In this document: positions 5,201 through 45,418 of the stretch, in pieces
Numbering within the stretch: position 1 is the stretch's first letter
Layout of the letters: each line of letters starts with the position of its first letter
Origin: Gemmatimonadota bacterium
Lineage (GTDB): Bacteria > Latescibacterota > UBA2968 > UBA8231
Length of the DNA stretch: 45,418 nt
Reading direction: 5' to 3'
NCBI GenBank assembly: GCA_038128265.1
Contig: JAYPJE010000034.1
Coordinates: 1 to 45,418, forward strand
Translations under genes and position numbers: made by a program
Notes under the pieces: model-generated
Seen by the model: only the letters and a program-made list of their open reading frames with translations
Database searches by the model: none
What the model was told of the DNA's origin: nothing

Positions 5201-5503
5201 GGCAATCGATGGCGCCTGACGCTCGACGTGACGACGATGCTGGGCAGGGGACGCGTGCTCTCGGCGTCGGCTAACGCCATCGAACTGGACTTTTGTATTA
5301 TGGCGCGCACCGGCTACCTACACGAAGCCTATCTGCGCAACCCTGCAGGTGACAGTGCACCCATTGCCTCGGCCTACAACCGCGACCACGAGAGCACATC
5401 GATCCAGCTGCACACCGCGCTGGCGAATGTAGAAGAAGGAATGTGGTTGGAAGCGGTCGACTGCGTGCCGGGCGACAGCGTCCTCGTAAACACTACCGGG
5501 TGA
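2255..5503 (+). CDS. Heparinase II/III-like (polysaccharide-lyase fold) protein, 1082 aa, with an N-terminal CxxC...CxxC segment and no signal peptide
   Basis: Helical middle region with FPDGTPPEATGGYN, then GHRHMDLLDTQLFAYDRVFLGDLGYP...HN, resembling the GHxHxD...DxGY...HN heparinase II/III signature. Confidence 0.65.
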   Translation: MGTLAIPWSPRRLLAGRTFRLPVQSQDGTALDVDAASFALLDRRYSARDGAWYLYLRAPNHSTEGHIIVRQGGASASTRIEVHTLNELRQHGAHGAAQWPRRWPLGQALVSRKTRQTLTQEPLAAADGEAVRFWLDLDDDVLWRQLPNAEMPRAHFANVHQGCPQCGTAIFTHGGFYPWLRSHTPIDYRSTCPSCRAVFPSNDLANGDFTTGAFPDDGYGYFDADGHLFLFAATYARDQVRAFGAGIGHLTSALHAQPDTTTARTLALMLLRYAVEIVYLGAVPQFRYGPSEGVEKPWNWGQPDWSGEELGAKGMLRYCIDVPYISEALALAYDAVWPLLREDRALVERAQLLGIEANTPDDLLALVEEMLACQLQCCLDGGARSNLPRVSQAVLVLLRALDRDDGQDALAWLYDRGPDRLRTFGVNNFFPDGTPPEATGGYNSIHIDGLFDLEHHLRQLRQLHPDAYPEDHFPSLLADPRAVRVARAPIEIATIGRSWLQFGDGSAPGSAAQLGKDVDEAKRLTQPVFYASMHRETLGRAAEYTGDPVLRSMRDAIASGAHPHLGSTVHDGVGLAVLRTAEAPERAAVGVCYGDATGHRHMDLLDTQLFAYDRVFLGDLGYPQSWASIQHWEAHWATHNSGWGIVDGLDERRVAGRGRLLHVVQRPGLQMLDIAAERWAWDAEKSAWYRPGVQLRRLLALVETDEDGVALIDLMRIEGGREHWRLCRGCGPVFSTDVDQQHQGGTLAGVAIQRGDLSALPHPDYAALAYMDDVQQLATPASWRGTWTMDSEAHLDIYQLHASAGVAVRSARATAIMGTPEESTYAFRTLSWRRDARDGEPTCVDLIYEPRVGASNLASVHHIAAQDTAAGVSIETRSGKRIRLYWAPDSNGEVTFADGTRLRGALAAVVDDQVTSCAATEIFFEGRRRALASGTQQATVCGVDEAACTVDVEGLDRATPGMRVRTAARGRNYRVEQVEHLGGNRWRLTLDVTTMLGRGRVLSASANAIELDFCIMARTGYLHEAYLRNPAGDSAPIASAYNRDHESTSIQLHTALANVEEGMWLEAVDCVPGDSVLVNTTG

Positions 5504-5690
5504 CGCGCCCGCGTGCCTTTTGTGCACGGCGCACCAAAAATTCCCACGTTTGCCAGCAGCGCGTGCCGCTAGCCCACTCTGCGCCAACTGCGGCGATTTT
5601 TTATACACTTCTGACGCTGCGCCAAAGCCAGCGCGTAGCAGTTGCTTGCATCGCATCGTATTTGTGTGGCTGAATGCGGCGGTTGGCACC

Positions 5691-5696
5691 TATAAT
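5691..5696 (+). promoter_or_regulatory. Possible -10 box upstream of the DUF6785-like gene
   Basis: Perfect TATAAT 30 nt before ATG 5727; no convincing -35. Confidence 0.35.
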
Positions 5697-5726
5697 AGCA
5701 TATTCTCCATCAACGAAACGCCCCCA

Positions 5727-7694
5727 ATGGCAGCTGATCTCACACAGCACCGACCCCACATCGATCCCGATTCCGCTTCCGCCTACAGCGTCCGAGCCAT
5801 CTTGGTTGGCTGCGCAGGTGCCTTCTGCGTTTCAGCGGGTGCGGCCTACGGCACGCTCTATCTGCACGGCTCTTTTATGGCCCTGGGCACCAGCATGCCC
5901 GGCGCGGTATTTATTCTCTTCATACTGTGTCTATTTGCAAATCCTACCCTCAGGTGGCTCTATCCGCGCGCAGCTCTGCATCGCCGTGAATTGCTTGTCG
6001 TCTACATCATGATGGTAATGGCCTCGCCCATTCCAACGCTTTTCGTCGGCAAATTTTTGAGCGCTATCAGTTACCCGTTCTATTACGCTACAGTGGAGAA
6101 CGAGTGGCGAGCCCTGCTCCACCCCTATATACCGGGTTGGCTGATTGTAAATGATCTAGAAGTGGTGCGCGCCTTTTACGAGGGAGGTGAGCGCGATAGC
6201 CCACTGCCATGGGAAGTTTGGCGCTCCGTTTTCTGGGTGTGGACACCCTTTGTCTGTGCACTCTTCATGCTCATGATTTCGTCTATGTCGATCATGCGCA
6301 AGCAGTGGGTCTCACACGAGCGCCTAATCTACCCGCTGATGCAAGTGCCCTTGGCGATGACCAGCGAAGGCGCAGCGAACGAGCGCCTGAGCCCTTTTTT
6401 TAAAAACCCCGTCATGTGGGCCGGTTTCGCGCTGCCTGCCATGTGGGGTACTCTGCACGGTCTTTACAACTACTTTCCCGACGTTATGCCCATCGCCCGC
6501 GACGTGGATCCACTGCGCATGAGTATAGGTGTTTTTGAGGGCACGCCCGACCTCTTTATCGCGCTGCGCTTTAACATCATCGGCTTCTTTTACTTTCTCA
6601 AGACAGATATCGCCTTCAGCCTGTGGTTTTTCAACCTGCTCTCCTTTGTCGCCCGCGGTATCTTCGCCGCGTTGGGACTGGCTAGTAGCCACGCCGGAGG
6701 GGCCGGCCACGCAGTGCGCGACCCCTTCCTCGCCTTTCAGGCCATGGGAGCCGTACTAGTGCTCTGTGCCGGTGGTGTGTGGACCGCGCGCAACCACCTG
6801 CGCTCCGTCTGGCGCAAGGCAATCCACGGAGATTCTACCGTAGACGATAGCGCAGAAATTCTCTCCTACCGAGCCGCGCTTGTCTCCGTAGTCGTCTCCG
6901 TCACAATCCTCGTCGGTTGGCTGTGGCTGGCCGGACTGCCCCTGCTCTTCGGGGTGGCGATCCTCTTTCTTGGCTTCATAGTGATCTTCGCCTATGCGCG
7001 CGTGGTCGCCGAGGGCGGTCTATCGGACGGCGAACCGCCCGTCGTTCCCGCAGGTATGCTCGTATCGGCTGTGGGCTCGTCGGCCATTGGTCCGCAGGGG
7101 TTAGTCGTGTTGGCGACGACCTTTTTGTGGACTACTGGACGCAACTTTGTCATGGTCTCCTGCGCCAATAGCCTTCGTTTAGGGGAAGAATTGGGACCTC
7201 GGCGCCGACCGCTGTTCTGGGTAATGGTGCTGGCACTGTGCGTTGCCTTTGGCGCGGCGCTATGGGTCGTGCTGAGTCTGAGCCACCAACATGGCGCAAT
7301 CAATTTGTGGATCTGGCAGGGCGGCAATTACGCGTATGCAGAACAGCTCATCCGCAACCCGAGTGCACCGTACGGATGGGGTTGGTTTAATATGGGGATA
7401 GGCGCCGCCATTACGGGCGGCCTGATGATTGCTCGCTGGCTCTACGCTTGGTGGCCCCTGCATCCATTGGGCTACGTCATAGGCCCCATATGGATCATGG
7501 ATCACCTGTGGTTCAACATGTTAATCGCTTGGCTAATAAAGGTGTTGGTGCTCAAGTACGGCGGGGTAAAACTCTATTTAAAGACGCGCCCGTTTTTCAT
7601 TGGAATGATCCTGGGATACTTTACGCCGGGCGGCTTCTTCCTCGTCATCGATCACTTCACCGGCATGACGTGGAATATCATTTTCTGGGGCTAG
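5727..7694 (+). CDS. Polytopic membrane protein, DUF6785/DUF6784-like putative transporter, 655 aa
   Basis: Many hydrophobic segments. RKQWVSHERLIYPL, WWPLHPLGY and KYGG...RPFFIGMILG are motifs I recall from this uncharacterised family. Start placed at ATG 5727 (MAADL), downstream of the TATAAT. Confidence 0.7.
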   Translation: MAADLTQHRPHIDPDSASAYSVRAILVGCAGAFCVSAGAAYGTLYLHGSFMALGTSMPGAVFILFILCLFANPTLRWLYPRAALHRRELLVVYIMMVMASPIPTLFVGKFLSAISYPFYYATVENEWRALLHPYIPGWLIVNDLEVVRAFYEGGERDSPLPWEVWRSVFWVWTPFVCALFMLMISSMSIMRKQWVSHERLIYPLMQVPLAMTSEGAANERLSPFFKNPVMWAGFALPAMWGTLHGLYNYFPDVMPIARDVDPLRMSIGVFEGTPDLFIALRFNIIGFFYFLKTDIAFSLWFFNLLSFVARGIFAALGLASSHAGGAGHAVRDPFLAFQAMGAVLVLCAGGVWTARNHLRSVWRKAIHGDSTVDDSAEILSYRAALVSVVVSVTILVGWLWLAGLPLLFGVAILFLGFIVIFAYARVVAEGGLSDGEPPVVPAGMLVSAVGSSAIGPQGLVVLATTFLWTTGRNFVMVSCANSLRLGEELGPRRRPLFWVMVLALCVAFGAALWVVLSLSHQHGAINLWIWQGGNYAYAEQLIRNPSAPYGWGWFNMGIGAAITGGLMIARWLYAWWPLHPLGYVIGPIWIMDHLWFNMLIAWLIKVLVLKYGGVKLYLKTRPFFIGMILGYFTPGGFFLVIDHFTGMTWNIIFWG

Positions 7695-17304: not shown

Positions 17305-20300
17305 ATGCCTTTTGGCGCCTTTTTGGCGTTTTGTGCGGTCGTTCTGTTGGCGGCGTCGGCGCCCGTGCAAGCGACAATCGTCATATTCGGCCATCACCAG
17401 GGTCTCAGCGGACAGAGCATTGCGCGCCCCGGTGCCGAAGTGCCCGTCTACTCCGTGCGGCTTGTAAACGACGGCAATTCTACGCTCCAATCGATCGCCC
17501 TCACTCTATCCGATCTGAGCACGCCGACCGGGATTGGCGCCAGTGCCTTTGCCCAACTGCGCCTATACCGCAGTGCCGACGCAACCTTCGACGCCGGCAG
17601 TGACAGCCTGTTGGGCACCCAAAACAGCGTGGCGCTCGGCAGTCCCAGCACGATTTCTCTCGACGCACCGCTCAACTGGAATTCGTCTTTCCCCTATTTT
17701 ATCGCCACGCTGACGCTCAGCACAACCCACGTCGACGAAGTGGGGACCAATAAAGATGCCTTTCGCGTCGGCTCGGCCGCCGGCGCCATTGCCACCAGCA
17801 GCGGAGCCATTGGCGGCGAAATTGTCGCCGATAATGCCAATAGCGTTTCCATAGACGTGGTGGCCACGCAGGTGGCCTTTGCCACCCAGCCCGTCGACGC
17901 GACCGCCAGCAACGGCGACGTCGTTTCGGGACGGGCCTTTGCCACCCAGCCCGTGCTCGAAGCGCGCGATGCCTATGGCAACGTCGACGTCGACGCCAGC
18001 GGCAGTGCAAGCATCGGCGTCGGCAGCGGCAGCGGCAGCGTATCGCTATCGGGATCGACAGGCGTCAATTGGACCGCGGGACGGGCCCCCTTTACCAACT
18101 TGGCCGTTACCACCGCCAGCGATGCGGCGTCCTTTACCCTATCGGCTACGAGCAGTGGTCTAACCAGCGCCACCAGCCGCAGCTTGGTAGCCGATATCGT
18201 CGCCACGCAGATGGTCTTCACCGCTCAGCCCACCCACGGCGGCGTGGCCAACGGTGACGTGCTGTCGGGCGTGGCCTTCCAGACCCAGCCCGTCGTCAGC
18301 GCACAGGATGCCGACGGGCGCGTCGATACCGATTTCAACGACGCGATAACGCTGACTACGAGCGCACCCGGCACGCTCTCGGGCACGACCACTCGGTCCG
18401 CTTCCAGCGGGGTAGCAACCTTTACCGACATCACCTACACCGCCACGGTAGACCAACAATCTTTTGCGCTGCTAGCTGACGACCTGCCCGGCGGCTCCGG
18501 CGGCGACTTACCCAGCGCTAGCACCGCCAGCCGCACTGCTGACATCGTCGCCACCAAGATCGTCTTTGCCACGCTGCCCTCCGACGCGGCCGCCACCAAC
18601 GGCAACGTCGTTTCGGGACGGGCCTTTACTACCCAGCCCGTACTCGAAGCGCGCAACGAAAGCGGACAGCGCGACCTCAACTTTACCGGCAGTGTGTCCC
18701 TGTCGCTGCCGCCGGGTAATCCCAGCCTGAGCGGCACGCTTAGCAAAACGTGGATCAGCGGCCGGGCCGACTTTGCCGGCAGCGGCCTGCGCGTTACCGC
18801 AACGAGCGATGCAACAACTTTTGCACTGAGCGCGACCAGCGGTTCCATCAGCGGCCAGAGCACTACGCTAACGGCCGACATCATCGCTACGCAAATGGCT
18901 TTCGCCACCCAGCCAGCCGATGCACGCGCGCCTAACGGCGACGTGGTCTCCGGCATTGCATTCCAAACACAGCCCACGATCGAAGCGCGCAACGACGATG
19001 GCGTGGTAGACATACACTATGCTGGCAACCCGCCAGCCCTAACCGTCCAATCGGGCGATGTCACTCTAACGGGTACAACCAGCGCAAATTGGAGCAACGG
19101 ACGAGCATCTTTCTCCAATCTAGCCGTCGATGCGGCGAGCGAGGGACAGAGCTTCGCGCTGGCGGCGGCCAACGACGGCGGCTTGACGCCCGTCACCACC
19201 AACGCGTTGGTCGCCGATATCGTCGCTACCCAGATGGTATTCACCGCTCAGCCCACTCACAGCGGCGTGTCCAATGGCGACGTGCTATCGGGAGTTCCCT
19301 TCCAGACCCAACCCATTGTTAGCGCCCAGGATGCCGGTGGCCGCATCGACACCCACTTTAATGACACCATCGCGCTGACGACGAGCGCGCCCGGCACGCT
19401 CTCGGGTGCGACCAGCCAGCAGGCCACTAGCGGCGTGGCGACCTTTACCAACATCGCCTACACTGCCACGGCTGATCAGCAGTCCTTTGCCCTGCTAGCA
19501 GACGATCTGCCCGGTGGCTCCGGCGGCGACTTGCCCAGCGCCAGTACCAACAGCCGCACTGCCGATATCGTCGCTACGAAAATCGTCTTCACTACCCTCC
19601 CGTCCGACGCAGCCGCCACCAACGGCGATGTCGTTTCCGGACGCGCATTCGCCACCCAACCCATACTCGAAGCCGTCAACGAGAGCGGACAGCGGGACCT
19701 CAACTTTACCGGCAATGCGACGATAGCCCTGGCCTCCGGCAGCGCTACGCTGCTGGGTACGACGAGCGTTGCATGGAGTGCCGGGCGCGCGCTCTTTGAC
19801 GCCAGCGGCCTCGGCATTTCGACTTCCGGCGACGGCGTGACTTTCGCGCTACGCGCTTCTGCAACAGGCCTGGCCGACGCCACGACAAGCACGCTGACTG
19901 CCGATATCGTCGCTACGAAAATTGCCTTTACCACGCAGCCCTCCGATCCTGCCGCCAGCAACGGCAGCGTCGTCTCCGGACGGGTCTTTGCCACCCAGCC
20001 CGTCCTCGAAGCCGTCAACGAGAGCGGACAAAAGGATCTGCACCTATCGAACGTGCCCGTTACACTGGCCGTTCAGTCAGATGCCGTAACTCTATTGGGC
20101 ACCGCAACGACCAACTGGGTCAGCGGCCGCGCAGCTTTTGCCAATCTATCGGCCAGCGCGACCGGCGATGCCGCGCCTTTCACCCTGTCGGCCACGAGTG
20201 CCGGACTCATTAGCGCCGACAGCAATGCGCTCGTGGCCGACATCGTTGCCACACAGATGGTCTTTACAACGCAACCCGCTCACGGCGGCCTGGCCACTGA

Positions 20301-23300
20301 CGACGTGCTGTCAGGGGCCCCCTTCCAGACCCAGCCCACCCTACAGGCTCGGGATGCCGATGGACGCGTTGACACGCACTTTGCCGACATAATTACGCTG
20401 ACGACCAGCGCGCCAGGCACCCTCTCCGGCACCACCGCCCGCCAGGCCATAGCCGGCATCGCCGTTTTTGATGACGTCGCCTACGCCGCGACGGAAGACC
20501 ATCAGTCCTTTGCGCTGACAGCCGATGATCAACCCGATGGTTCAGGCGGTGACCTACCCAGCGTCAGCACCGCAAACCTCAGCGCCGATATCGTTGCCAC
20601 GCGCCTGGTATTCGCGCAGGCGCCGCGCACTAGCGCAGGTGTCGGTGCTGAGTTGCTCGACCCGGAGTTAACCGTGCGGGCCGTCCACCAGGATGGCGGC
20701 ATCGACGGCGAATTTACCGGACCCATATCCCTCAACGCGGTGGCCGTTGGCCAGTCGGTTCCGCTCCTGGGGTTTTCAGCGAGCCCAGCGCACACGCTAA
20801 CTCCGAGCAACGGACAGGTCACCTTCACGTCGGCCTCCTACGACAGCGCCGGACAGCTACAGCTCTTAGCCACTAGCGTCGGTTTAGAATCGGCGCGCAG
20901 TGCCACCATTTCTCAAGTGGGCACACTCGAACTGCGCGCTCCCCTCGAGCAAGTCCCCAACCAGTTAGCCTTTCAACGCGACGCAACACCGCGGCAGGTC
21001 GCCCTGATGTCCTTCGGTGCCGCTGCACGAGGCGAGGCACTTGCCTTAACCCATCTGAGCGCGCACCTGTCTTTTGGAAGCGGCATGTCGCCGACACACG
21101 TCGATACGCTGCACCTGTGGCGCGACAGCGGCTCGCTCAGCCTGCTGGATCCAGGCGATCGGCTGCTGGGCACTGCGGCGGTCGATGGCGATGGCGCGGC
21201 GCACTTTGCCAGCCTCCGCGATACATTGGATGGGCTCGGCACCTTTCTCATAACCTGGAGCGCGCGCAGCCCGCTGCAGGCGGGCTGGACTCTGCGCGCC
21301 GAACTCGAGGCAAACTCGATTCGCGCTATGAGCACGCGTATGAGTGGCGTTGCGGCATCAGCGTCCGGTGCCAGCATCGAAAGCGCCCTGCACGAAGTCG
21401 GTCTGGTAGGACAGCCACATCGACTGCTGCTTAGCGCCGCGCCGGATTCGCTAATAGCCGATAGCTTGTCGAGCACGACGCTTACCGCAACAATTGTCGA
21501 TGCCCAACAGCGTCCAATCACTACAGACAACCGCACGCTCGTCGCCTTTACAACAATCAGCGGTGATGTGTGGATTAGCGGCTCCCTATCGGCCCAGGCA
21601 CAAGGCGGCAGCGCCAGCACGGGGCTGCGCGCTGGCACGACGGCCGGCACGGCACGCGTCCGCGCCGGCGCCGCGGGCCTGCTGCCAGACACCATTGATG
21701 TCGCCCTGATCGCCGGTCCCGTAGCGAATATTGAACTGGTCGCTGATCCCCCGTCTATTTTGCTGGAGAACGGCGACCGCAGCGATGTGACCGCGCTTCT
21801 GCGCGATGCGTACGGCAACCTGACGGGCAACGGAGAAGAAGTCTCCTTTTCTCTAACTGGGTCTGGCCGCTTTGTGGACGATGCAAACAGCGCATACAGT
21901 TCCAACGGGCTCGCTAGCACGCAGGTGCAGGCGACCAACCCCGGCACGCTGCGCGTGGCGGCGGTTGCCCGGACGCTCCGCCGCGAAATGGACATTGCCG
22001 TCGTTGCCACACAGCCACCCTTTATATCGCTGAGCAGCTCCATCGCCGAACTACCCGCTAGCGGCACGCGCGCGGCCGACATCACTGCTTTTCTACGCGA
22101 TGCGCGCGGCGAACTGCTGAGTACGAACGATACGACGCGGGTGCGCTTCAGCATTGTTCAGGGACAGGCCACACTATCGCAGAGCGAAACCGTCGCCAAC
22201 AGCGGTTTGGCCAGCACACAGGTGCGCAGCTTAGGCCTAGCCGGACCGATTGTCGTGCGCGCCGAAGCCGAGCACTTGCAGGGCGCGGAAATCGAATTAC
22301 AGGCGCGCGCCGAAGCGGCCTACCGCCTCGACCTAGTCGTCGTACCCGCAACCATCGTAGCCGATCGGCAGTCCACGGCCGTGCTCTCTGCCGTAGTGCG
22401 CGACAGCTTGGGCAATATCGTCAGCGATGCGGCGGCTGATATCTCTTTCTCCATCGAGAGCGGCAATGCGGAAATCATCGGACCGCAAACAGCCATAACT
22501 CAGAACGGCACGGCACAGACCACCTTGCGCTCCTCTATCCGCGCCGAAGCGATTACGCTGCGCGCCGAAGCCCCGGGACTGCTATCCGGCAGCACGCAGC
22601 TGCAGCTCACAGCCGGTCCCGCAGCCAAAATCCAGCTGCGCGCCTCGCCGGCCGCACTGCCCGGAATTGATACGACGAGCGCAGAGCTCATCGCCGAAAT
22701 TCAAGACGTGCACGGCAATCGCATTTTGGCCGATTCGACAACCGTAGTCAGCTTTTCCATTTCCGGTGGCCCTGCCACCGTGCGGCCGCCGACGTTTTCA
22801 CGCGCCAGCGAAGGGCTCGCCCACGCGCGCCTGCTCTCCACGGGAGAAATAGGCAACATACTCGTGTTTGCCGGATCGTCCGGCCTAGCTCCGTCGACCT
22901 TTACTATTCCCGTACTCGAAACGCAACCACCGCGCTTTAATAGCGACGTAGTCCAGATCGAATTGGTAGAAGATGGACCCACTCAGCGCCTAGATCTTGG
23001 CTCCCTAGTGACCGATGTGGACTCGCCGATCGAACAACTCGTTTTTACCGTCTCTAACGCGGACATACCCCTGACGCTGCGGATTGATGGCCGACACCTC
23101 GTGGCGTCACCGACGACGCCCAACTTTGCCGACACCGTGCAAACCACGCTCGTCGTGCGCGATCCTAACGGCCTGGAGGATACGGCGGTGCTGCAAATCG
23201 CCGTTCTTCCGCAAAACGACCCGCCGCGCATTACGTCTGTTCCCGACACGGTTGCGACGGTCGACTCGCTCTACATATATGCGATAAGCAGCGTCGATGC

Positions 23301-24495
23301 CGACGGCGACGCCATGAGCTTTAACCTGCTTGAAGGGCCGCAGGGCATGCGCTTTGATCGCGCTATCGGCAGGGCGGCCTGGCGACCGGCCAGCGCCGGC
23401 ACGTATGAGGTGCGCATAGCCGTCAGCGATGGAACTGTCGCCAGCGAACAAACGTTTCGACTGCACGTTGTAGGCAGCACCGAGCGCATGGCCTTTGCCA
23501 GTGAACCCCCTCTGAGCGTGCGCCTCGGCAGGCTCTACAGATACCAGCCGCTGCTCTTAAATACACCTTCCACAGCGCCGCGCTTTTCCCTGCTTGCAGC
23601 CCCGCCGCGCATGCAGATCGACCCGGACACGGGTCTGATCAGCTGGATGCCAACCAGCGGCGATGCGACCCGTTCCGCGGTGACGCTGGTCGCATCGAGC
23701 GGCGTGCAGCAGGTCAGACAGCAATTCCAAATCGCGCTAACGGAGGGCAATACAGCACCGCAAATTACATCGACGCCGATCACTCAAACCCTAGTGGACT
23801 CACTCTATCTGTACCCGCTACGCGCCAGCGACGCAGACAGCGACACCTTGGTATTCACCATTGTGCGCGGTCCCACCACTATGCGCATCAACCCACTCAA
23901 CGGACTCATATCGTGGGTGCCCAAGCGGAGCGATATGGGCATCCATGACATCGCTGTGCGCACCTACGACGGCCAGTTTAACGACGAACAGGTCTTCCAG
24001 CTCAGCGTGCAGTCGCTCAACGCGCCGCCGCGCATAGTGCCACTCAAAGGCGTAACGGTTGAAGGCGGAACGGCCACGCTCCGCCTCATCGACCTGGTCA
24101 GCGATACCGATCACGCCTTTGCCGACCTCGAGTGGACGATTCGTCAGATAGACGGCGACCCCATCAACTACACCTATGCAGCAGGCGATGTGGCCGTTCT
24201 ATTTTCCGTTCCCAGTGCCTTTACCCAAGCCCGAATCCAACTTGAAGTGAACGATCCCGACGGCAATTCCGACCAGCACGCACTGCGCATAGCGCGTCGA
24301 CAGCAGAGCGATTTTAACGGCGATACCAGCATTGACCTGAGCGATTTCTTTGCGCTGGCCGACGCCTTTGGCGCGGCACCCAATGCAAAGAATTGGAATG
24401 AAAATGCCGACCTCAATCGCGACGGCATCATCAACCTCGACGACTTCTTCGCATTCATAGACAGCTTTAACCGAGCCAACCTACCCGAAAAGTAA
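17305..24495 (+). CDS. Giant secreted/surface Ig-repeat protein (2396 aa): signal peptide, 8-9 ~113-aa repeats, about 5 invasin/Big_1-like domains, about 5 cadherin/He_PIG-like domains, C-terminal dockerin/EF-hand-like pair
   Basis: Hydrophobic N-terminus ending VQA; DIVAT..F.TQP repeats; P..I.AD..ST..L.A.VRD..GN units at ~300-nt spacing (21409-22920); N.PP.ITS.P...LY.Y...D.DGD units; terminal DFNGDTSIDLSDFF and DLNRDGIINLDDFF. Confidence 0.88.
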   Translation: MPFGAFLAFCAVVLLAASAPVQATIVIFGHHQGLSGQSIARPGAEVPVYSVRLVNDGNSTLQSIALTLSDLSTPTGIGASAFAQLRLYRSADATFDAGSDSLLGTQNSVALGSPSTISLDAPLNWNSSFPYFIATLTLSTTHVDEVGTNKDAFRVGSAAGAIATSSGAIGGEIVADNANSVSIDVVATQVAFATQPVDATASNGDVVSGRAFATQPVLEARDAYGNVDVDASGSASIGVGSGSGSVSLSGSTGVNWTAGRAPFTNLAVTTASDAASFTLSATSSGLTSATSRSLVADIVATQMVFTAQPTHGGVANGDVLSGVAFQTQPVVSAQDADGRVDTDFNDAITLTTSAPGTLSGTTTRSASSGVATFTDITYTATVDQQSFALLADDLPGGSGGDLPSASTASRTADIVATKIVFATLPSDAAATNGNVVSGRAFTTQPVLEARNESGQRDLNFTGSVSLSLPPGNPSLSGTLSKTWISGRADFAGSGLRVTATSDATTFALSATSGSISGQSTTLTADIIATQMAFATQPADARAPNGDVVSGIAFQTQPTIEARNDDGVVDIHYAGNPPALTVQSGDVTLTGTTSANWSNGRASFSNLAVDAASEGQSFALAAANDGGLTPVTTNALVADIVATQMVFTAQPTHSGVSNGDVLSGVPFQTQPIVSAQDAGGRIDTHFNDTIALTTSAPGTLSGATSQQATSGVATFTNIAYTATADQQSFALLADDLPGGSGGDLPSASTNSRTADIVATKIVFTTLPSDAAATNGDVVSGRAFATQPILEAVNESGQRDLNFTGNATIALASGSATLLGTTSVAWSAGRALFDASGLGISTSGDGVTFALRASATGLADATTSTLTADIVATKIAFTTQPSDPAASNGSVVSGRVFATQPVLEAVNESGQKDLHLSNVPVTLAVQSDAVTLLGTATTNWVSGRAAFANLSASATGDAAPFTLSATSAGLISADSNALVADIVATQMVFTTQPAHGGLATDDVLSGAPFQTQPTLQARDADGRVDTHFADIITLTTSAPGTLSGTTARQAIAGIAVFDDVAYAATEDHQSFALTADDQPDGSGGDLPSVSTANLSADIVATRLVFAQAPRTSAGVGAELLDPELTVRAVHQDGGIDGEFTGPISLNAVAVGQSVPLLGFSASPAHTLTPSNGQVTFTSASYDSAGQLQLLATSVGLESARSATISQVGTLELRAPLEQVPNQLAFQRDATPRQVALMSFGAAARGEALALTHLSAHLSFGSGMSPTHVDTLHLWRDSGSLSLLDPGDRLLGTAAVDGDGAAHFASLRDTLDGLGTFLITWSARSPLQAGWTLRAELEANSIRAMSTRMSGVAASASGASIESALHEVGLVGQPHRLLLSAAPDSLIADSLSSTTLTATIVDAQQRPITTDNRTLVAFTTISGDVWISGSLSAQAQGGSASTGLRAGTTAGTARVRAGAAGLLPDTIDVALIAGPVANIELVADPPSILLENGDRSDVTALLRDAYGNLTGNGEEVSFSLTGSGRFVDDANSAYSSNGLASTQVQATNPGTLRVAAVARTLRREMDIAVVATQPPFISLSSSIAELPASGTRAADITAFLRDARGELLSTNDTTRVRFSIVQGQATLSQSETVANSGLASTQVRSLGLAGPIVVRAEAEHLQGAEIELQARAEAAYRLDLVVVPATIVADRQSTAVLSAVVRDSLGNIVSDAAADISFSIESGNAEIIGPQTAITQNGTAQTTLRSSIRAEAITLRAEAPGLLSGSTQLQLTAGPAAKIQLRASPAALPGIDTTSAELIAEIQDVHGNRILADSTTVVSFSISGGPATVRPPTFSRASEGLAHARLLSTGEIGNILVFAGSSGLAPSTFTIPVLETQPPRFNSDVVQIELVEDGPTQRLDLGSLVTDVDSPIEQLVFTVSNADIPLTLRIDGRHLVASPTTPNFADTVQTTLVVRDPNGLEDTAVLQIAVLPQNDPPRITSVPDTVATVDSLYIYAISSVDADGDAMSFNLLEGPQGMRFDRAIGRAAWRPASAGTYEVRIAVSDGTVASEQTFRLHVVGSTERMAFASEPPLSVRLGRLYRYQPLLLNTPSTAPRFSLLAAPPRMQIDPDTGLISWMPTSGDATRSAVTLVASSGVQQVRQQFQIALTEGNTAPQITSTPITQTLVDSLYLYPLRASDADSDTLVFTIVRGPTTMRINPLNGLISWVPKRSDMGIHDIAVRTYDGQFNDEQVFQLSVQSLNAPPRIVPLKGVTVEGGTATLRLIDLVSDTDHAFADLEWTIRQIDGDPINYTYAAGDVAVLFSVPSAFTQARIQLEVNDPDGNSDQHALRIARRQQSDFNGDTSIDLSDFFALADAFGAAPNAKNWNENADLNRDGIINLDDFFAFIDSFNRANLPEK
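17854..20586 (+). repeat. Eight tandem intragenic repeats (336-348 nt) arranged A-B-C-A-B-C-A-B
   Basis: Units start at the D of D(V/I)(V/I)AT at 17854, 18193, 18541, 18877, 19216, 19564, 19903 and 20239, with a degenerate ninth at 20587; super-period 1023-1026 nt. Confidence 0.92.
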
Positions 24496-39347: not shown

Positions 39348-41081
39348 TCACATCCGTTCTACGGTACCAATACCCAATAGACCAAGACCGCGCGAAATCA
39401 CTTGCGCCGTTAGGCTGCACAGCTGCAGACGGCTATCGCGCACCCGATCTTCGGCGCGCAGTACCGGGCAGCTCTCGTAAAACTTCATGTACAATTCAGC
39501 CAGCTCGTAAAGGTAGTTGCACAGAGCATTCGGATAGCACTCGCGCGCAACGGCGTCTACCACTTCGCCGAATTGCACGATCTTGACGGCCAGCGCGCGC
39601 TCGGCCGGCTCGCCGATTTCAATAGTGCCGCTCAGCGCAGACTCGTCTAACTCAGCGCGGCGGAAAATGCTCTTCACCCTCGCGTACGAGTACTGCAGGT
39701 ACGGCGCCGTATTCCCTTCGAAGGAGAGCATCTTGTCCCAGTTAAAGATGTAGTCGGTCGTGCGGTTAAGCGATAGGTCGGCGTATTTAACGCTGCCAAT
39801 GCCCACGACGCGGGCTATTTCGCGCCGCTCCTCTTCGCTCAGTTCCGGATTCTTTTCGCCAACCAAGGCAAAGGCACGCTCTTCGGCTTCGCGCAGCAGG
39901 TCCATCAGCTTGACCGTGCCGCCCGTCCGCGTCTTAAACGGCTTGCCGTCGTCGCCAAGCATGGTGCCAAAGGAATGATGCTCGAGCGCACACGATTCCG
40001 GCGCATAATCGGCCGCGCGCGATACGGCAAACACCTGGCGCAGATGGAGCATCTGCCGCGCATCGACGATGTACAGCACGCGATTGGCGTGCAGCTCACC
40101 GGCGCGGTAGCGCACGGCGGCAAGGTCGGTCGTTGCGTATAGATACCCGCCGTCAGACTTTTGCACAATCACCGGCGTAATCTCACCATCTTTGCCTTTG
40201 AACTCTTCGAGAAATACGCACTGGGCACCGTCCGACTCGCGCAGCAGCCCCTGGGCGCGCAGATCGTCAATAATCTGGGGTAAGTCATCGTTGTAATCGC
40301 TCTCGGCGCGCACATCTTCGCGCCGCAGCGTCACACCCAGCGTTTCGTACACCTCTTCGCAGTGGCGCAGCGACTCTTCGATGAAACGCTGCCAAACTGC
40401 TCTCACGTGTGCGTCACCGCTCTGCAATTTGACGACATATTCGCGCGCCGTAGTGGCAAACGCCCCGTCGCTGTCAAACAGCTTGCGCGCCGATTGGTAG
40501 AATACCTCTAAGTCGGCCAATTCGGACGAAGTATCTTGCCCGGCCGCATCCAAACGGTCCATATAGGCGATAAGCATGCCAAACTGCGTGCCCCAATCAC
40601 CCACGTGATTGTGCCGCACGACTTCGTGGCCACAGAACTCCAGCACGCGCGCAATGGCATCTCCGATAATCGTGGTGCGCAAATGCCCCACGTGCATTTC
40701 TTTGGCCAGATTGGGATGCGAATAGTCGATTACAACCTTTTGGAGCGGCTGTGCCCGAGGAACGCCGAGTCGCTCATCCGCTAGCGCGGCGTTGAGATGG
40801 CCATCTAACCAAGCCGACTTGAGCTTCACGTTGATAAAGCCCGGCCCTGCAATATCGACTGACTCGGCTACGTCGCTCAGATCTAGGTGCTCCAAAACGG
40901 CTGCGGCCACCTCGCGCGGATTCTTCTTTAGCCCTTTAGCGACGGCCATGACGCCATTGGCCTGGTAGTCGCCAAACTCCGGTCGCGTCGCCGCACCAAC
41001 CAGCGCCTTGCTACCGGCTGGTGCACCCGCACCGACCAACGCGGCGGCGATGCGCTCTTCTAGCTCTTCTCTAATTGCCAT
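39348..41081 (-). CDS. argS: Arginine--tRNA ligase
   Basis: Motifs FGDYQAN, PNLAKEMHVGHLR (HIGH-like), NHVGDWGTQFGML, KPFKTRTG and GNTAPYLQY. Confidence 0.98.
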   Translation of the reverse strand: MAIREELEERIAAALVGAGAPAGSKALVGAATRPEFGDYQANGVMAVAKGLKKNPREVAAAVLEHLDLSDVAESVDIAGPGFINVKLKSAWLDGHLNAALADERLGVPRAQPLQKVVIDYSHPNLAKEMHVGHLRTTIIGDAIARVLEFCGHEVVRHNHVGDWGTQFGMLIAYMDRLDAAGQDTSSELADLEVFYQSARKLFDSDGAFATTAREYVVKLQSGDAHVRAVWQRFIEESLRHCEEVYETLGVTLRREDVRAESDYNDDLPQIIDDLRAQGLLRESDGAQCVFLEEFKGKDGEITPVIVQKSDGGYLYATTDLAAVRYRAGELHANRVLYIVDARQMLHLRQVFAVSRAADYAPESCALEHHSFGTMLGDDGKPFKTRTGGTVKLMDLLREAEERAFALVGEKNPELSEEERREIARVVGIGSVKYADLSLNRTTDYIFNWDKMLSFEGNTAPYLQYSYARVKSIFRRAELDESALSGTIEIGEPAERALAVKIVQFGEVVDAVARECYPNALCNYLYELAELYMKFYESCPVLRAEDRVRDSRLQLCSLTAQVISRGLGLLGIGTVERM

Positions 41082-41922
41082 CCTTAACCCGTTCTAGCGC
41101 CGCGGCGACCATGTGATCTACTGGCGGTGCAATGCCCGTCCATAGCTCGAAGGAACGCGCGCCCTGCCATGCGAGCATACCCAACCCGTTGATAGACCGA
41201 GCGCCGGCGGCTTCGGCCTGCTGCATCAAGCGCGTCTTCAGCGGCTTGTATACGATATCTGCGACCAGCATATCTGCGTGTAAAACCGATGCATCCACCA
41301 ACGGCGAGGCGTCGGCGTGCGGATGCATGCCAACCGACGTGGAATTGATCAGCAAATCCACGTTCCCAACCTCATTCGAATCCATCGCTGCCACGCGCAC
41401 TTTTTCACTGCGATCCAAATCGCTGGCCAGCGCTTCGGCTTTTGACAGCGTGCGGTTGAGCAGCCATATACGCTCGATTTGTGGGCACTGCAGCAGGGCG
41501 TAAAGGATGGCGCGCGCGGCGCCCCCAGCCCCCAGCAGCGCAACCTTTGACGGCAGCTCTGCCAGCCCGCCGTCGCGCTTCAGACTCTCCATAATGCCAA
41601 AGGCATCGGTATTGTAGCCGACCAGCCGTCCCTGCCGATTGACGATCGTATTGACCGCACCAATGGCCACAGCCTCGTCCGAAACTTCATCGATATGGTC
41701 CATGACGTTCTGCTTGTGCGGCACCGTCACGTTCAGTCCGGCCATATCCAACGCGCGCATTCCATCTATGGCACGGCCCAGCCCATCTGCCCGCACGTGA
41801 AAAGCGACGTAGGCGTAGTCTATGCCCAGCGCAGCGATCGCTGCGTTGTGCATAGCCGGCGACGACGTGTGGCCAATGGGATCGCCGATTACGCCGAGAA
41901 TGCGCGTCGTGCCCGATATCAC
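41071..41922 (-). CDS. aroE: Shikimate dehydrogenase, 283 aa
   Basis: Motifs GDPIGHTSSPAMHN, NVTVPHK, GAVNT, GYNTD, LGAGGAARA and NSTSVGM; GTG start 41922. Confidence 0.96.
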   Translation of the reverse strand: MISGTTRILGVIGDPIGHTSSPAMHNAAIAALGIDYAYVAFHVRADGLGRAIDGMRALDMAGLNVTVPHKQNVMDHIDEVSDEAVAIGAVNTIVNRQGRLVGYNTDAFGIMESLKRDGGLAELPSKVALLGAGGAARAILYALLQCPQIERIWLLNRTLSKAEALASDLDRSEKVRVAAMDSNEVGNVDLLINSTSVGMHPHADASPLVDASVLHADMLVADIVYKPLKTRLMQQAEAAGARSINGLGMLAWQGARSFELWTGIAPPVDHMVAAALERVKDGN

Positions 41923-42059
41923 GCCAGCAGGTCCTCGACAAATTGATCGGCGATCTCGACGGCCTCGCTCCACGAAACGTCATACAGCAAGCGAATGACG
42001 ACCACGCCACCGCAGAACAGCACGGCGGCAAGCGCGGCCAGGCGCAATAATGTCCTCAT
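41919..42059 (-). CDS. 46-aa single-TM microprotein (not in the ORF track)
   Basis: MRTLLRLAALAAVLFCGGVVVIRLLYDVSWSEAVEIADQFVEDLLA; ATGA overlap with the aroA-like stop and GTGA overlap with the aroE start. Confidence 0.75.
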   Translation of the reverse strand: MRTLLRLAALAAVLFCGGVVVIRLLYDVSWSEAVEIADQFVEDLLA

Positions 42060-43327
42060 CGTCTCTTCTCCTTCAGCGCGGCGAGCGCTGTGAAAAATTC
42101 GGGATGCACGTCCTCTATGCCCTGTGCATTGTCGACGACTACCTCACCTTCGGCCCACAGGCCCAACAGGGCAAAGGCCCGCGCCAAGTCGGCGTCGCCG
42201 CGCGCGTCGAGCTGACCGCCCATCACCGGAAAGCCGCCCTTAATTACAATACCCTCGGGAAACTCGCCGATACGCACCTGCAGCGCGCGCAGAGACTCAA
42301 ACAGGTGCTGCACTCTATCAAATGCTCCCTCGCGCAGCGTCTGCACGTCGCGAATGACAATCTCTCCCGGCACGCGCGTTGCCAGTGCGGCCAGCAGCGC
42401 GACCTGCTCCATCACGTTTTCAGCCCGCTGGCCGGCCACCCGCGTGGACTTTAGCTCGCTTGGATGAACGCTCAGATCGCAGGTCTCTTCGCCGCGATCT
42501 TCCATCTCAAATTCTCCGCCAATCTGGCGCAGTAACTCGAGAAAGTGTCGCTGGCCAGATCGCACAGCAACGCCCTTTATCACGACGTGCGACCCCTTCA
42601 ACGCAAGCGCGGGTAGCATCAACGGGTAGGCCAAATTCAAATCGCCGGCCACGTCCACGTCCAGCGGCTGCACGACCTGTCCACCCTGCGTAGAAACGAC
42701 GTATTCCTCACCGCTGCGCCGCCGTTCGACAACGACTTCGCGCTGGCGCAGAAAGCGCTCCATGCGGTTGCGGTTTTTGCTCGACTCGCGCATCTGCGTC
42801 ACGCCCTCGCAGTAGAGCGAGGCGACCAGCACGGCAAGCTTTTCGTCGGCATCTATATCGAGCAGCGCATGTTCGGCAGCGCTCGGCTGTGCCTTGCCAA
42901 GGGCGTACACGCTCCCCGTTTCGCGCTGTGCCCCCATGCCCATAGCTTCCAGCAGCGACAGCACGCCGTGTGCCCAGCCGCTCTCTTCGCCTAGCCTAAC
43001 TCTGCTGACAAAGCGCTGTCCGGCGAGAATGGCCAAGAGCAGCAAACCGCTCGCACCCCAGCCCTGCGCGTCCACTATATCGTCGGCGGGCGATAGCCCC
43101 GTCAGGCCCTTGCCGCGCACGACCAACCCATCGCGCTCCTGCTCAACCTCGACGCCAAAGGCGCGAAGGCACGCAGCTACGCGCAGCGCGCTGGGCGGCA
43201 CAAAACGCACGCGGCTCTCACCTTCGGCAATGGCGGCTAGGAGTAGGGCACACTCGGCGGGAACGCGCTCTCCGGGAACGCGCACTTCCCCCAACACTTT
43301 CTTTGTCGGCGTAATAGACTGGCGCAT
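42056..43327 (-). CDS. AroA/EPSP-synthase-fold protein with degenerate active site (candidate pseudoenzyme), 423 aa
   Basis: Collinear with class II AroA (GEVRVPG, GKGLTGL, GILAG-like AILAG, EGVT, VAGD, LLAALAT...G.IVI.D, PEFF), but the KS..HR, NSGT, RP, SAQ, IDE, KE and DHR motifs are substituted. Confidence 0.85.
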   Translation of the reverse strand: MRQSITPTKKVLGEVRVPGERVPAECALLLAAIAEGESRVRFVPPSALRVAACLRAFGVEVEQERDGLVVRGKGLTGLSPADDIVDAQGWGASGLLLLAILAGQRFVSRVRLGEESGWAHGVLSLLEAMGMGAQRETGSVYALGKAQPSAAEHALLDIDADEKLAVLVASLYCEGVTQMRESSKNRNRMERFLRQREVVVERRRSGEEYVVSTQGGQVVQPLDVDVAGDLNLAYPLMLPALALKGSHVVIKGVAVRSGQRHFLELLRQIGGEFEMEDRGEETCDLSVHPSELKSTRVAGQRAENVMEQVALLAALATRVPGEIVIRDVQTLREGAFDRVQHLFESLRALQVRIGEFPEGIVIKGGFPVMGGQLDARGDADLARAFALLGLWAEGEVVVDNAQGIEDVHPEFFTALAALKEKRR

Positions 43328-43481
43328 TATATCAACCGCATGGCATTGGAGTCACAGTAGAAGGCGAACGTCTGCTGTTGGATAGATGTTTTTTTACCGG
43401 CAATAGAGTGAGTGAAACCGTGGCCCAGTAAGCAGGTGAATGGCGCACGCGTTTACCAAGCATCGCATACCTTTCTGCTCG

Positions 43482-43508
43482 GCCCTGCGCAACAAACCCG
43501 CGCAGGGC
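43482..43508. other. 9-bp perfect hairpin downstream of tyrA, without a U-tract
   Basis: GCCCTGCGC-AACAAACCC-GCGCAGGGC. Confidence 0.5.
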
Positions 43509-43528
43509 GCGTGCGCGGCAAGGTCTAT

Positions 43529-44623
43529 TCACGGCCGGCGCGCCACATAGCCAATGCCTTCCAATACTTCCAGTGCCTTTGCCGCGGCTGAGTCGCTGTC
43601 AAATCCCAAGCGCAGCGTGCCCCCTTCACCCTCGCGCACCTTCATCACCTCTATATCGCTGATGTTGAGGTCGTGCTGCTGCATAGCAGCGGCAATTTCG
43701 GCAATCACACCGGGGCGATCCTCCGCCACTACGAGTATCTCGTAAAGAGCGTGAATAAAGCCTTTAGCATCGCGCGGTATCGAGCTCCGCACGCGGTTAG
43801 CGTAGGCGAAATCATCGGATAAGCTGCCGTCTTCCAAGCGATCGCGCGCGTCTTTTAGCACGGCGATGTAGCGATCGACCATGGCGCGCACACCGTCGGC
43901 ATTGGTCGCGTAAATATCCTGCCAAACCGGCGCAAACGGGCTCGAGGCAATGCGCGTCATATCGCGAAATCCGCCGGCGGCCAGCGGCAGAAAATGGTCG
44001 TTCTCTTCGTTGAGAAGCCCAACCATTTCTACCAGCGTCGTCGCCATGAGCTGCGGTAAGTGACTTATCGAAGCCACCGCCTGATCGTGCGCATCGGCGT
44101 CTAGCTCTAACACGCGCGCTCCCACGCCTCGCAAAAGATTGACGAGTGCTTCATAGCGCGCGCGCGGCACCCCCTCATCCGGCACGAGAATGTAAATGGC
44201 GTTCTGAAACAAAAATGGATCGGCCGCCGTCACGCCCGCTTTTTCCGATCCGGCCATTGGGTGGCCGCCGATAAAGTGGGTGCCCTCGCGGAAACACGCC
44301 CGGGCGCGCGCGACAATGCTGCGCTTGGTGCTGCCGACATCGGTGACCAGCGCGCCGTCTGGCACCAGCGAGGCGACTTCTTCCACCTGCTCTAGTATGC
44401 GCTGTATCGGCGTGCAGAGAAAGACGAGGTCTGCGCCGTCGAGGGCCTGCGCCATCTCATCGTAGCTCCAGCCCTCGTCGATCACGCCCATATCCAGCGC
44501 CGTCTGCACGGTCTCGCGCCGGCTGACGCCGACGATCTGTCCGGCAAAGTGACCGCGCTTGAGTGCCAGCCCCATAGAGCCGCCAATCAGGCCCACTCCG
44601 ACTAAAACGACTCGCTTAAAGAA
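43529..44623 (-). CDS. tyrA: Prephenate (cyclohexadienyl) dehydrogenase with C-terminal ACT domain; start codon ambiguous
   Basis: Rossmann motif FKRVVLVGVGLIGGS, TDVGSTK, GGHPMAGSE, HDQAVASISHLP, AAGGFRDMTRIA and ACT motif EDRPGVIAEI. The frame extends 5' of GTG 44596 with no canonical start. Confidence 0.93.
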   Translation of the reverse strand, partial: FFKRVVLVGVGLIGGSMGLALKRGHFAGQIVGVSRRETVQTALDMGVIDEGWSYDEMAQALDGADLVFLCTPIQRILEQVEEVASLVPDGALVTDVGSTKRSIVARARACFREGTHFIGGHPMAGSEKAGVTAADPFLFQNAIYILVPDEGVPRARYEALVNLLRGVGARVLELDADAHDQAVASISHLPQLMATTLVEMVGLLNEENDHFLPLAAGGFRDMTRIASSPFAPVWQDIYATNADGVRAMVDRYIAVLKDARDRLEDGSLSDDFAYANRVRSSIPRDAKGFIHALYEILVVAEDRPGVIAEIAAAMQQHDLNISDIEVMKVREGEGGTLRLGFDSDSAAAKALEVLEGIGYVARRP

Positions 44624-44625
44624 GG

Positions 44626-44898
44626 CTAGTCCTCCTCTTCCTCGAGGTGCACCGCCTCGGCGATAATGCGGCGAAAGATTTCCTCGATAGCCACATCGCG
44701 CATCGGTCCCTCATTGTACTCGCGCAGCTTCTGTAGCAATGCCCTTTCGCGCTCGGGGTCGCGGATGGGACGGCCGTGTTCCTTTTTGATATGACCGATT
44801 GCCAAGGCACAGCGCATGCGCTCGTTGAGGCGTTCCAGCAGCTCCCTATCGAGCTGGTCAATGCGCTCGCGCCACGCGCTGAGATCCATATCGCTCAT
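44626..44898 (-). CDS. Monofunctional AroQ-class chorismate mutase, 90 aa
   Basis: WRERIDQLDRELLERLNER...IGHIK...IRDPERE...IFRRII; ATG 44898 one nt after the trpS stop. Confidence 0.93.
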   Translation of the reverse strand: MSDMDLSAWRERIDQLDRELLERLNERMRCALAIGHIKKEHGRPIRDPERERALLQKLREYNEGPMRDVAIEEIFRRIIAEAVHLEEEED

Positions 44899-44899
44899 G

Positions 44900-45418
44900 C
44901 TAGCGCAGCCCCATGGCATGGCGCACATTGCGCATCGTCTCGTCGACGATGGGACGCAAATATTCAACGCTGTGAGCAAGCACGCCGTCGATATAGGATG
45001 GATCGGCGCTGATTTCGGCATAGCGCGTCTGGATGGGCTCAATCTCCGCCATCACTACGTCGAGCACGCCCTTTTTCAAGTCGCCATAGCCCTTGCCGGC
45101 AAAGTGCGATTCGATCTCCTCTTTGCCCTGCCCGCTCAGCGCCTGGTAGATGCCGAGTAGATTGTTAACGCCCGGACGATGCTCGTCAAAGACGATTTCG
45201 GTCTGCGAATCGGTAACGGCGCGCATGATGGTCTTCTTGATCTTGTTGGGCGGATCGAGCAGCTCGACGCTGTGGAACTGTCCCTCGCCCGACTTGGACA
45301 TCTTTTTGGTCGGATCGTCGAGCCCCATGATGCGCGCACCCACTTGGCGGATCACGGGCTCAGGCACGGTAAAGACCTCGCCGAATTTGCGATTAAAGCG
45401 CTCGGCAATATCGCGCGT
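44900..45418 (-). CDS. trpS: Tryptophan--tRNA ligase, C-terminal part (5' end outside the window)
   Basis: Motifs TRDIAERFN, RIMGLDDPTKKMSKS, RAVTDS, RPGVNNLL and GYGDLKK. Confidence 0.97.
   Translation of the reverse strand, partial: TRDIAERFNRKFGEVFTVPEPVIRQVGARIMGLDDPTKKMSKSGEGQFHSVELLDPPNKIKKTIMRAVTDSQTEIVFDEHRPGVNNLLGIYQALSGQGKEEIESHFAGKGYGDLKKGVLDVVMAEIEPIQTRYAEISADPSYIDGVLAHSVEYLRPIVDETMRNVRHAMGLR

Follow-up and report, generated by a model that had tools for sequence, protein, structure and literature searches.

Catalytic degeneration and apparent retention of a class II EPSP synthase homolog between tyrA and aroE in Latescibacterota

The 5-enolpyruvylshikimate-3-phosphate (EPSP) synthase AroA (EC 2.5.1.19) is a two-domain enzyme whose active site lies between the domains. 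Described class II enzymes include those of Bacillus halodurans (3rmt), Coxiella burnetii (3roi/3slh), and Agrobacterium CP4 (2gg4). HisZ, a pseudoenzyme paralog in amino-acid biosynthesis, serves as a regulatory subunit with HisG, and both its partner and its regulatory role have been shown experimentally. The subject of this analysis is pAroA, an EPSP synthase homolog of class II ancestry that is catalytically degenerate. Its gene lies between tyrA and aroE on a 45,418-nucleotide (nt) stretch of DNA, hereafter the window. The window is contig C34 of a Latescibacterota genome (G000; GenBank assembly GCA_038128265.1, contig JAYPJE010000034.1), and the assembly comprises 4.29 Mb in 102 contigs and is 84% complete.

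The closest published precedent found for pAroA is the AroF remnant of Pseudomonas syringae. The AroF (EPSP synthase) domain of a TyrA-AroF fusion has lost about 200 N-terminal residues in this species, and catalysis has been discarded (Song, Bonner, Wolinsky & Jensen 2005, BMC Biol 3:13; PMC1173090). The truncation is coupled to lateral acquisition of a phylogenetically incongruent stand-alone aroF, and the authors raise the possibility that what is left of the domain acts in regulation (PMC1173090). The initial annotation of the window, made from the sequence letters alone, knew of no described example of an inactivated homolog of this kind, a statement that proves too strong in view of the truncated AroF on TyrA described in 2005. 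Full-text literature searches, with subscription journals and supplements outside their scope, returned no description of an EPSP synthase pseudoenzyme family, and a preprint on EPSP synthase classification speaks only of "unclassified" EPSP synthases.

pAroA is a full-length homolog that lacks the residues of a working enzyme. Its open reading frame (ORF) starts with ATG and contains no internal stops, in agreement with the initial description of an intact frame of 423 amino acids (aa), and the Pfam family PF00275 (EPSP_synthase) matches residues 6-414 across profile positions 2-416 of 417 with 139.1 bits. Within NCBIfam the strongest match, at 169 bits, is to PRK14806, a model of bifunctional TyrA/AroA, in its AroA half, and the leading phmmer matches among Protein Data Bank (PDB) sequences are class II AroA proteins (3rmt, 5e-45; 3roi/3tr1, 5e-40). 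The AroA equivalog model TIGR01356 scores 139.3 bits, below its curated cut-off of 287.25. The MurA equivalog model TIGR01072 gives 34.3 bits against 392.7, which places pAroA outside MurA.

The active-site comparison was computed against class II structures and class II database sequences. Relative to 3rmt and 3roi/3tr1, PGDKSISHR is replaced by PGERVPAEC, GNSGTTTRL by QGWGASGLL, KRPM by AHGV, SAQMKSA by DADEKLA, TRDHTERML by NRNRMERFL, PGDISSA by AGDLNLA, IDE by MEQ, KVKETNR by REGAFDR, and GDHR by GDAD. These positions presumably correspond to K22, R27, R124, and the further replaced residues in Escherichia coli AroA numbering. Each active-site replacement that had earlier been read by eye was recovered in the HMMER alignment. 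When eight motifs were scored (PGDKSxSHR, GNxGT..R, RP, SAQxK, RDHxE, xxD, KExD, and DHR), pAroA contained none of the eight and a canonical control scored with the same patterns contained seven. The window protein even lacks the Arg that 79% of its family keep at the PGDKSISHR position, where it reads PAEC. Because neither the TIGR01356 cut-off nor the conserved motifs are reached, pAroA does not belong to functional AroA. Its sequence indicates that it cannot have an AroA active site and that the shikimate-3-phosphate/phosphoenolpyruvate (S3P/PEP) site is lost.

The loss is shared by a distinct family of proteins. An alignment of 121 sequences was built from the window protein and the best 120 of 173 database clusters with E≤0.001. 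The motifs are absent from the window protein and from the 89 closest of the 120 listed clusters, and all are present, where the site is covered, in the next 31. The bit score drops from 238 to 161 at the 90th listed cluster, and from there all are canonical class II enzymes. The 89 closest listed clusters are 39-99% identical to pAroA and carry recurring motifs of their own: PGE.xPAER, NRNRME, LR.G.FD, and GD(A/P)x. Database members of this degenerate family come from metagenome-assembled genomes of Latescibacterota, some of them labelled Gemmatimonadota or Handelsmanbacteria. Among the 150 best matches listed by a profile search of 1.84 billion representatives, 27 are degenerate (at most 2 of 8 motifs), 111 canonical (at least 6 of 8), and 12 partial or intermediate. 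Matches down to E 1e-101 are all degenerate proteins or fragments of them, and a few partly degenerate proteins of 454-474 aa occur among the canonical matches. A set of 28 canonical class II sequences has 97 sites with conservation of at least 90%. In the 81 full-length family members, 29 of these sites are kept, 11 hold a different residue that is itself conserved, and 57 are lost. The kept sites are mostly Gly, Pro, or hydrophobic residues.

The enzymatic step is encoded elsewhere in the genome. The initial annotation had proposed a search for a canonical aroA, and a PF00275 search of the whole G000 assembly identified four genes: two MurA, pAroA, and one AroA on contig C3 (L002). The latter encodes a 433-aa protein that carries the usual motifs and passes the TIGR01356 cut-off with 352.4 bits. 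By sequence, the function is thus assigned to an AroA of an unrelated subtype. The two MurA paralogs lie on C99 and C24 (L001, 1142-2494, plus strand; L003, 1462-2766, minus strand) and score 450 and 477 bits with TIGR01072, both above its cut-off. One of them carries GGCTIGSRP, whose Cys we take to be the site that fosfomycin attacks, and the other carries GGDRIGPRP, whose Asp presumably marks the naturally fosfomycin-insensitive type.

The distribution of AroA types across the phylum follows the state of the operon copy. A survey of 168 genomes was searched with pAroA and with the C3 AroA, the copy at the locus was read in representatives, and a match to the C3 AroA at E≤1e-40 was counted as a second-type AroA. 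In six families, each judged from a single genome (f5, f6, f7, f9, f11, and f12), the tyrA-aroE locus holds a canonical class II AroA with every motif intact, and a second-type AroA is missing from all 16 genomes of these families. In the families with a degenerate copy at the locus (f1, which is the window's family, and f2, f3, f4, and f10), 134 of 144 genomes have one. A second-type AroA also occurs in families f8, f13, and f14, where the search at E≤1e-15 found no pAroA remnant. As judged from these gene contents, degeneration is confined to lineages with another AroA. The shared synteny with canonical in-phylum copies suggests that pAroA descends from them, and the survey indicates vertical descent from a class II EPSP synthase whose gene ancestrally lay between tyrA and aroE in Latescibacterota. 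All degenerate copies group together in a quick tree (SH-aLRT 99), in which long-branch attraction is possible; a single origin is therefore not claimed.

Seven f1 genomes lack a second-type AroA. Two of these (G158, contig C28, L119; G014, contig C15, L120) carry an AroA of a third type, which is class-I-like, measures 426-428 aa, and has motifs that look canonical, and two have PF00275 fragments at contig edges. A replacement AroA was not found in one further member of the seven, which is 90% complete (G012). The C3-type AroA within f1 is 60-93% identical in most genera and only about 35% in three, and at least three types of AroA supply the function in this family. From this variation among genera, it appears that the family has replaced its functional AroA repeatedly and retained the dead copy throughout.

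pAroA is conserved and constrained throughout the window's family. Of the 75 other family genomes, 71 carry an ortholog at E≤1e-60 (23 of 24 in a smaller first survey), and the four genomes without one are 58-86% complete. The orthologs are 36-88% identical. Chorismate mutase, tyrA, and pAroA follow one another in all 20 family loci, so that tyrA adjoins pAroA in each; aroE comes next in 19, and the twentieth ends at a contig edge. The Nei-Gojobori ratio of nonsynonymous to synonymous substitution rates (dN/dS) for pAroA is 0.12, 0.12, 0.22, 0.15, 0.20, 0.26, and 0.25 in seven pairs with dS<0.6, and the neighbors give 0.06-0.19 (TyrA) and 0.06-0.28 (AroE) in the same pairs. Among eleven informative pairs (a twelfth consisted of identical sequences), dN/dS is 0.10-0.44 for residues 22-225 (domain 2) and 0.07-0.27 for residues 1-21 plus 226-423 (domain 1). 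Both halves of pAroA are constrained in the window's family, domain 2 somewhat less.

Independent assemblies contain the same gene. Contigs of four runs from four other studies, compared with positions 41900-43400, differ by 25 substitutions in pAroA, of which 18 are synonymous and 7 nonsynonymous, with no indels in the covered parts; coverage is incomplete in two runs. The runs listed for positions 41000-44600 included no RNA run. Recent decay had been expected to leave an intact AroA in close relatives and a dN/dS of about 1. The relatives are degenerate too, and the ratio is well below 1. The substitution pattern indicates that pAroA is an intact gene under purifying selection through a deep radiation, with no sign of a fresh pseudogene, and the initial view of a protein that is maintained and not decaying agrees with its intact orthologs, the constraint on both of its domains, and its confidently predicted fold.

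The predicted structure of pAroA maintains the AroA architecture. An AlphaFold2 model from a 33-sequence alignment has a predicted local distance difference test score (pLDDT) of 94.4 and a predicted template modeling score (pTM) of 0.91, and it contains the alternating strand/helix pattern of both AroA domains. The top Foldseek matches of the model are EPSP synthases only, and the best are class II AroA proteins. The highest template modeling (TM) score is 0.82 to 3roi_B, compared with 0.65 to 2ggd, which is liganded with S3P and glyphosate; this difference in predicted conformation is not used as evidence.

Sister lineages contain trimmed forms of the protein. In genus g19 of f2 and in f3, the product of the gene at the tyrA-aroE locus is only about 215-227 aa long. 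Approximately 16 N-terminal residues, corresponding to the first AroA strands, are joined directly to the segment that begins at about residue 224 of the window protein. The join falls at the second (V/L)PGD motif, as if domain 2 had been cut out cleanly between a pair of similar motifs. This arrangement suggests that the excision arose by recombination. The 227-aa protein of genome G028 is predicted to fold compactly as a single domain (pLDDT 93.7), and the model superposes on one of the two domains of the Coxiella AroA at 1.7-1.8 Å over 194 columns. The one-domain proteins retain degenerate LR.G..D and GD.x motifs. In G028, a 320-aa ORF (L028, 2569-3531, plus strand) is inserted between tyrA and the one-domain remnant and resembles, by eye, phosphotransferases of the aminoglycoside/choline-kinase type.

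Between pAroA and aroE is a 46-aa ORF that encodes a predicted membrane microprotein. Its ATG overlaps the pAroA stop codon TGA (ATGA), and its own TGA overlaps the likely GTG start of aroE (GTGA). These overlaps link pAroA, the 46-aa ORF, and aroE. A scan for ATG-started ORFs with a hydrophobic N-terminus between pAroA and aroE was positive at 76 of 82 loci. The gene pair was missing at two others, tblastn later recovered the ORF at one of the remaining four, and several genomes were counted twice. The length is almost always exactly 46 aa, and Trp-30, Glu-32, Ile-36, and Phe-40 are invariant in 29 diverse copies. The microprotein matches 236 database clusters, mostly of 46 aa, and is conserved in amino-acid sequence across the phylum more strongly than pAroA. 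It has no family match in Pfam or NCBIfam, and an ESM Atlas search returned unnamed clusters only.

The most probable reading, to which a probability of roughly 60% is given, is that pAroA is a pseudoenzyme kept by selection for a residual noncatalytic role tied to the tyrA-aroE module. In the window's lineage a second AroA carries the enzymatic step, and the operon copy has lost its S3P/PEP site while remaining an intact, folded protein under purifying selection. The retained role would sit mainly in domain 1, composed of the N-terminal strand and the C-terminal half, since domain 1 is the sole part kept in the trimmed relatives. pAroA would act there as a structural or regulatory partner in the tyrA/microprotein/aroE module, with which it would be co-transcribed and translationally coupled. 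This assignment to domain 1 and to a partner role, drawn in analogy to the AroF remnant on TyrA of P. syringae, is tentative and is put at distinctly less than even odds. More doubtful still is the broader proposal that EPSP synthase domain 1 has a second, noncatalytic job, such as that of an allosteric or stabilizing subunit of TyrA and/or AroE. A moonlighting domain 1 would explain why a dead AroA is retained beside tyrA in Latescibacterota and in P. syringae, and the conserved 46-aa membrane peptide may tether a pAroA-TyrA/AroE assembly.

Several observations weigh against a retained role in this module. The protein has been trimmed to one domain in f2 genus g19 and in f3, genome G077 is left with a 174-aa open frame, and pAroA is absent from f8, f13, and f14. 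It has also been deleted in G087, a genome that is 95% complete and has the order tyrA-microprotein-aroE, from a genus in which 14 of 15 genomes keep a full-length degenerate copy. Trimming and loss in these sister lineages imply that the retained role is dispensable in some backgrounds and not universally needed. The microprotein stands beside canonical AroA in other classes of the phylum (f5, f7, and f9) and persists in G087 after the loss of pAroA, which suggests that it predates the degeneration and is not a dedicated pAroA partner; by the positive-inside rule, its acidic tail may moreover face outwards. pAroA diverges faster than its neighbors, at 40-45% identity compared with about 66% for TyrA and about 61% for AroE. 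Conservation of family-specific residues such as Arg-188, Arg-196, Arg-301, and His-341 does not extend to the degenerate copies of f2 and f4, and these lineages share no signature of a new function. Finally, a weak search among longer proteins found no TyrA-pAroA fusion.

The divergence rate and the missing signature also favor the main rival, in which pAroA is a relic without a dedicated function that has been slowly eroding since the second AroA made it redundant. Such a relic would stay foldable because it is translated mid-operon, coupled to downstream ORFs, and because misfolding of an abundantly produced protein would be costly, and lineages would lose it piecemeal. The graded series within the phylum, from full length through domain 1 only and the 174-aa frame to absence, fits this course, as does the ATGA overlap with the next ORF. 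The explanation is nevertheless considered unlikely. A dN/dS close to that of working neighbors and present in both domains is strong constraint for a mere spacer, and the full-length ORF is intact in nearly all family genomes over a wide range of identity. The trimmed forms are clean, foldable single domains and not random truncations. Bacterial deletion bias, moreover, normally removes useless DNA over long divergence, and 1.3 kb of it would be expected to disappear over a divergence such as this one.

Selection on both domains, and hence on the inter-domain cleft, in the window's family could alternatively reflect neofunctionalization, with the AroA scaffold binding another anionic metabolite as a sensor or as a transferase for a new substrate. 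There are 29 sites that are at least 90% conserved in the family and below 50% in canonical class II enzymes, and several of them are basic (Arg-194, Arg-196, Arg-202, Lys-244, Arg-296, Arg-301, Arg-326, and Arg-352). Many of these apparent gains, however, are already present in the canonical AroA of the phylum, including Thr-295, Arg/Lys-296, Arg-326, and Lys/Arg-352, and the truly family-specific residues are not common to the degenerate copies of f2 and f4. The basic residues were accordingly rejected as a candidate new site, most of them being inherited or not shared by other degenerate lineages. Relatives without domain 2 have no cleft, and the window protein has lost the Arg that most of its family keep at the PGDKSISHR position. 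Neofunctionalization is therefore judged improbable, more so than the relic. The initial annotation had left the choice between a pseudoenzyme and a neofunctionalized protein undecided; constraint, intact orthologs, and the canonical AroA elsewhere in the genome fit a maintained pseudoenzyme, and a new enzyme gains no positive support. Least plausible by far is that pAroA represents a highly divergent, glyphosate-insensitive class of active EPSP synthases. Its full-length fold, its position in the operon, and the name 3-phosphoshikimate 1-carboxyvinyltransferase given to relatives by some sources would agree with an active enzyme. Opposed to this are the lack of every one of the eight class II motifs in which the substrate-contacting residues lie, a score far below the equivalog cut-off, a canonical AroA in the same genome, the restriction of degeneration to lineages with another AroA, and one-domain versions that cannot form the active site.

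Three apparent gene fusions were rejected. P0020, a 599-aa protein from a 1-Mb contig with PF00275 and Shikimate_dh_N matches, resembled a pAroA-AroE fusion. Parts of its sequence are garbled, and its frame runs on through the microprotein ORF; frameshift errors of a long-read assembly most likely produced it. The frames of 656 aa and 796 aa in G019 and G008 result from upstream out-of-frame read-through over tyrA in high-GC DNA.

The operon occupies the minus strand in the order trpS (partial), chorismate mutase, tyrA with an ACT domain, pAroA, the 46-aa ORF, aroE, argS, aroK, and aroB, and pAroA thus lies directly downstream of tyrA, in the position that the initial annotation had called usual. 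Two of the listed ORFs are probably over-extended. Relatives of AroE align only from residue 14 of the long ORF that starts at the GTG at 41973; the start of aroE is probably the GTG at 41922, which overlaps the stop of the 46-aa ORF. Relatives of chorismate mutase align from approximately residue 49 of its listed ORF, and its true start probably lies near 44898, just past the trpS stop. The spacer between tyrA and pAroA is unusually long in the window; elsewhere in the family it measures about 5-130 nt, with the shortest examples at about 5-15 nt. A GC-rich hairpin (43498-43518, minus strand) with a weak T-tail lies in the window's spacer, immediately past the tyrA stop. The counts of the pattern scan that marked this hairpin and a promoter-like match are at chance, with 4 promoter-like matches against 2.8 expected and 9 terminator-like matches against 8.0. 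Rfam returned no family match in the window.

Table 1. Location of pAroA and adjacent features in the window
Feature	Coordinates	Strand	Basis
pAroA, class-II-derived degenerate EPSP synthase homolog, two-domain fold	42056..43327	-	423-aa ORF, PF00275 match, motifs replaced
46-aa ORF, hydrophobic N-terminal helix, acidic C-terminal tail	41919..42059	-	ORF and sequence
tyrA, prephenate dehydrogenase with C-terminal ACT domain	43529..44596	-	Pfam PDH_N, PDH_C, ACT
aroE, shikimate dehydrogenase	41071..41922	-	Pfam Shikimate_dh_N, SDH_C, Shikimate_DH
Chorismate mutase, AroQ type (type II)	44626..45042	-	Pfam CM_2 on residues 57-135 of listed ORF
tyrA-pAroA spacer, 201 nt	43328..43528	-	Pattern scan: terminator-like hairpin 43518-43498, promoter-like match 43355-43326

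The remainder of the window contains a large polysaccharide-biosynthesis cluster (7703-32761) with a sugar transferase, several GT2/GT4 glycosyltransferases, a phosphomannomutase, a DegT aminotransferase, an NAD epimerase, a polysaccharide deacetylase, and a methyltransferase. A 2396-aa ORF at 17305-24495 (plus strand) contains Ig-like Big_1, Invasin_D3, and GH2_C5 domains. A 1082-aa ORF at 2255-5503 has no Pfam match and is followed by an ORF with DUF6785/DUF6784 domains (5520-7694).

The degenerate family matters for annotation, since some sources give relatives the name 3-phosphoshikimate 1-carboxyvinyltransferase, and pathway reconstructions and glyphosate-sensitivity predictions by EPSP synthase class would then read the wrong gene. 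A single phylum presents a natural series from a canonical enzyme to a dead full-length protein, a single domain, and complete loss, in which the state of the gene tracks the replacement enzyme. This series makes the persistence of dead enzymes, and the part of the protein that carries a residual role, experimentally approachable. If domain 1 binds TyrA or AroE, it would represent an unrecognized layer of organization in the bacterial shikimate/tyrosine pathway. The 46-aa peptide adds an unannotated, highly conserved microprotein family inside a core biosynthetic operon.

Compared with the known systems, pAroA shares with class II EPSP synthase its full-length two-domain fold and its operon position after tyrA; it differs in that the substrate-binding and catalytic motifs are all replaced and the enzymatic role is on another gene. 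It resembles HisZ as a dead homolog of a pathway enzyme that is under selection and encoded with pathway genes, but the partner and role of HisZ have been demonstrated by experiment, whereas a partner role for pAroA is a proposal. The likeness to the P. syringae AroF remnant lies in a dead EPSP synthase copy at TyrA together with a second, incongruent stand-alone aroA. The deletion of about 200 residues in that remnant resembles the one-domain relatives of f2 genus g19 and f3 and not the full-length window protein. The remnant is fused to TyrA, whereas pAroA is a separate ORF beyond the spacer. pAroA combines full length with a point-wise loss of the active site, and it belongs to a phylum-level radiation, compared with a single species, in which purifying selection has been measured here.

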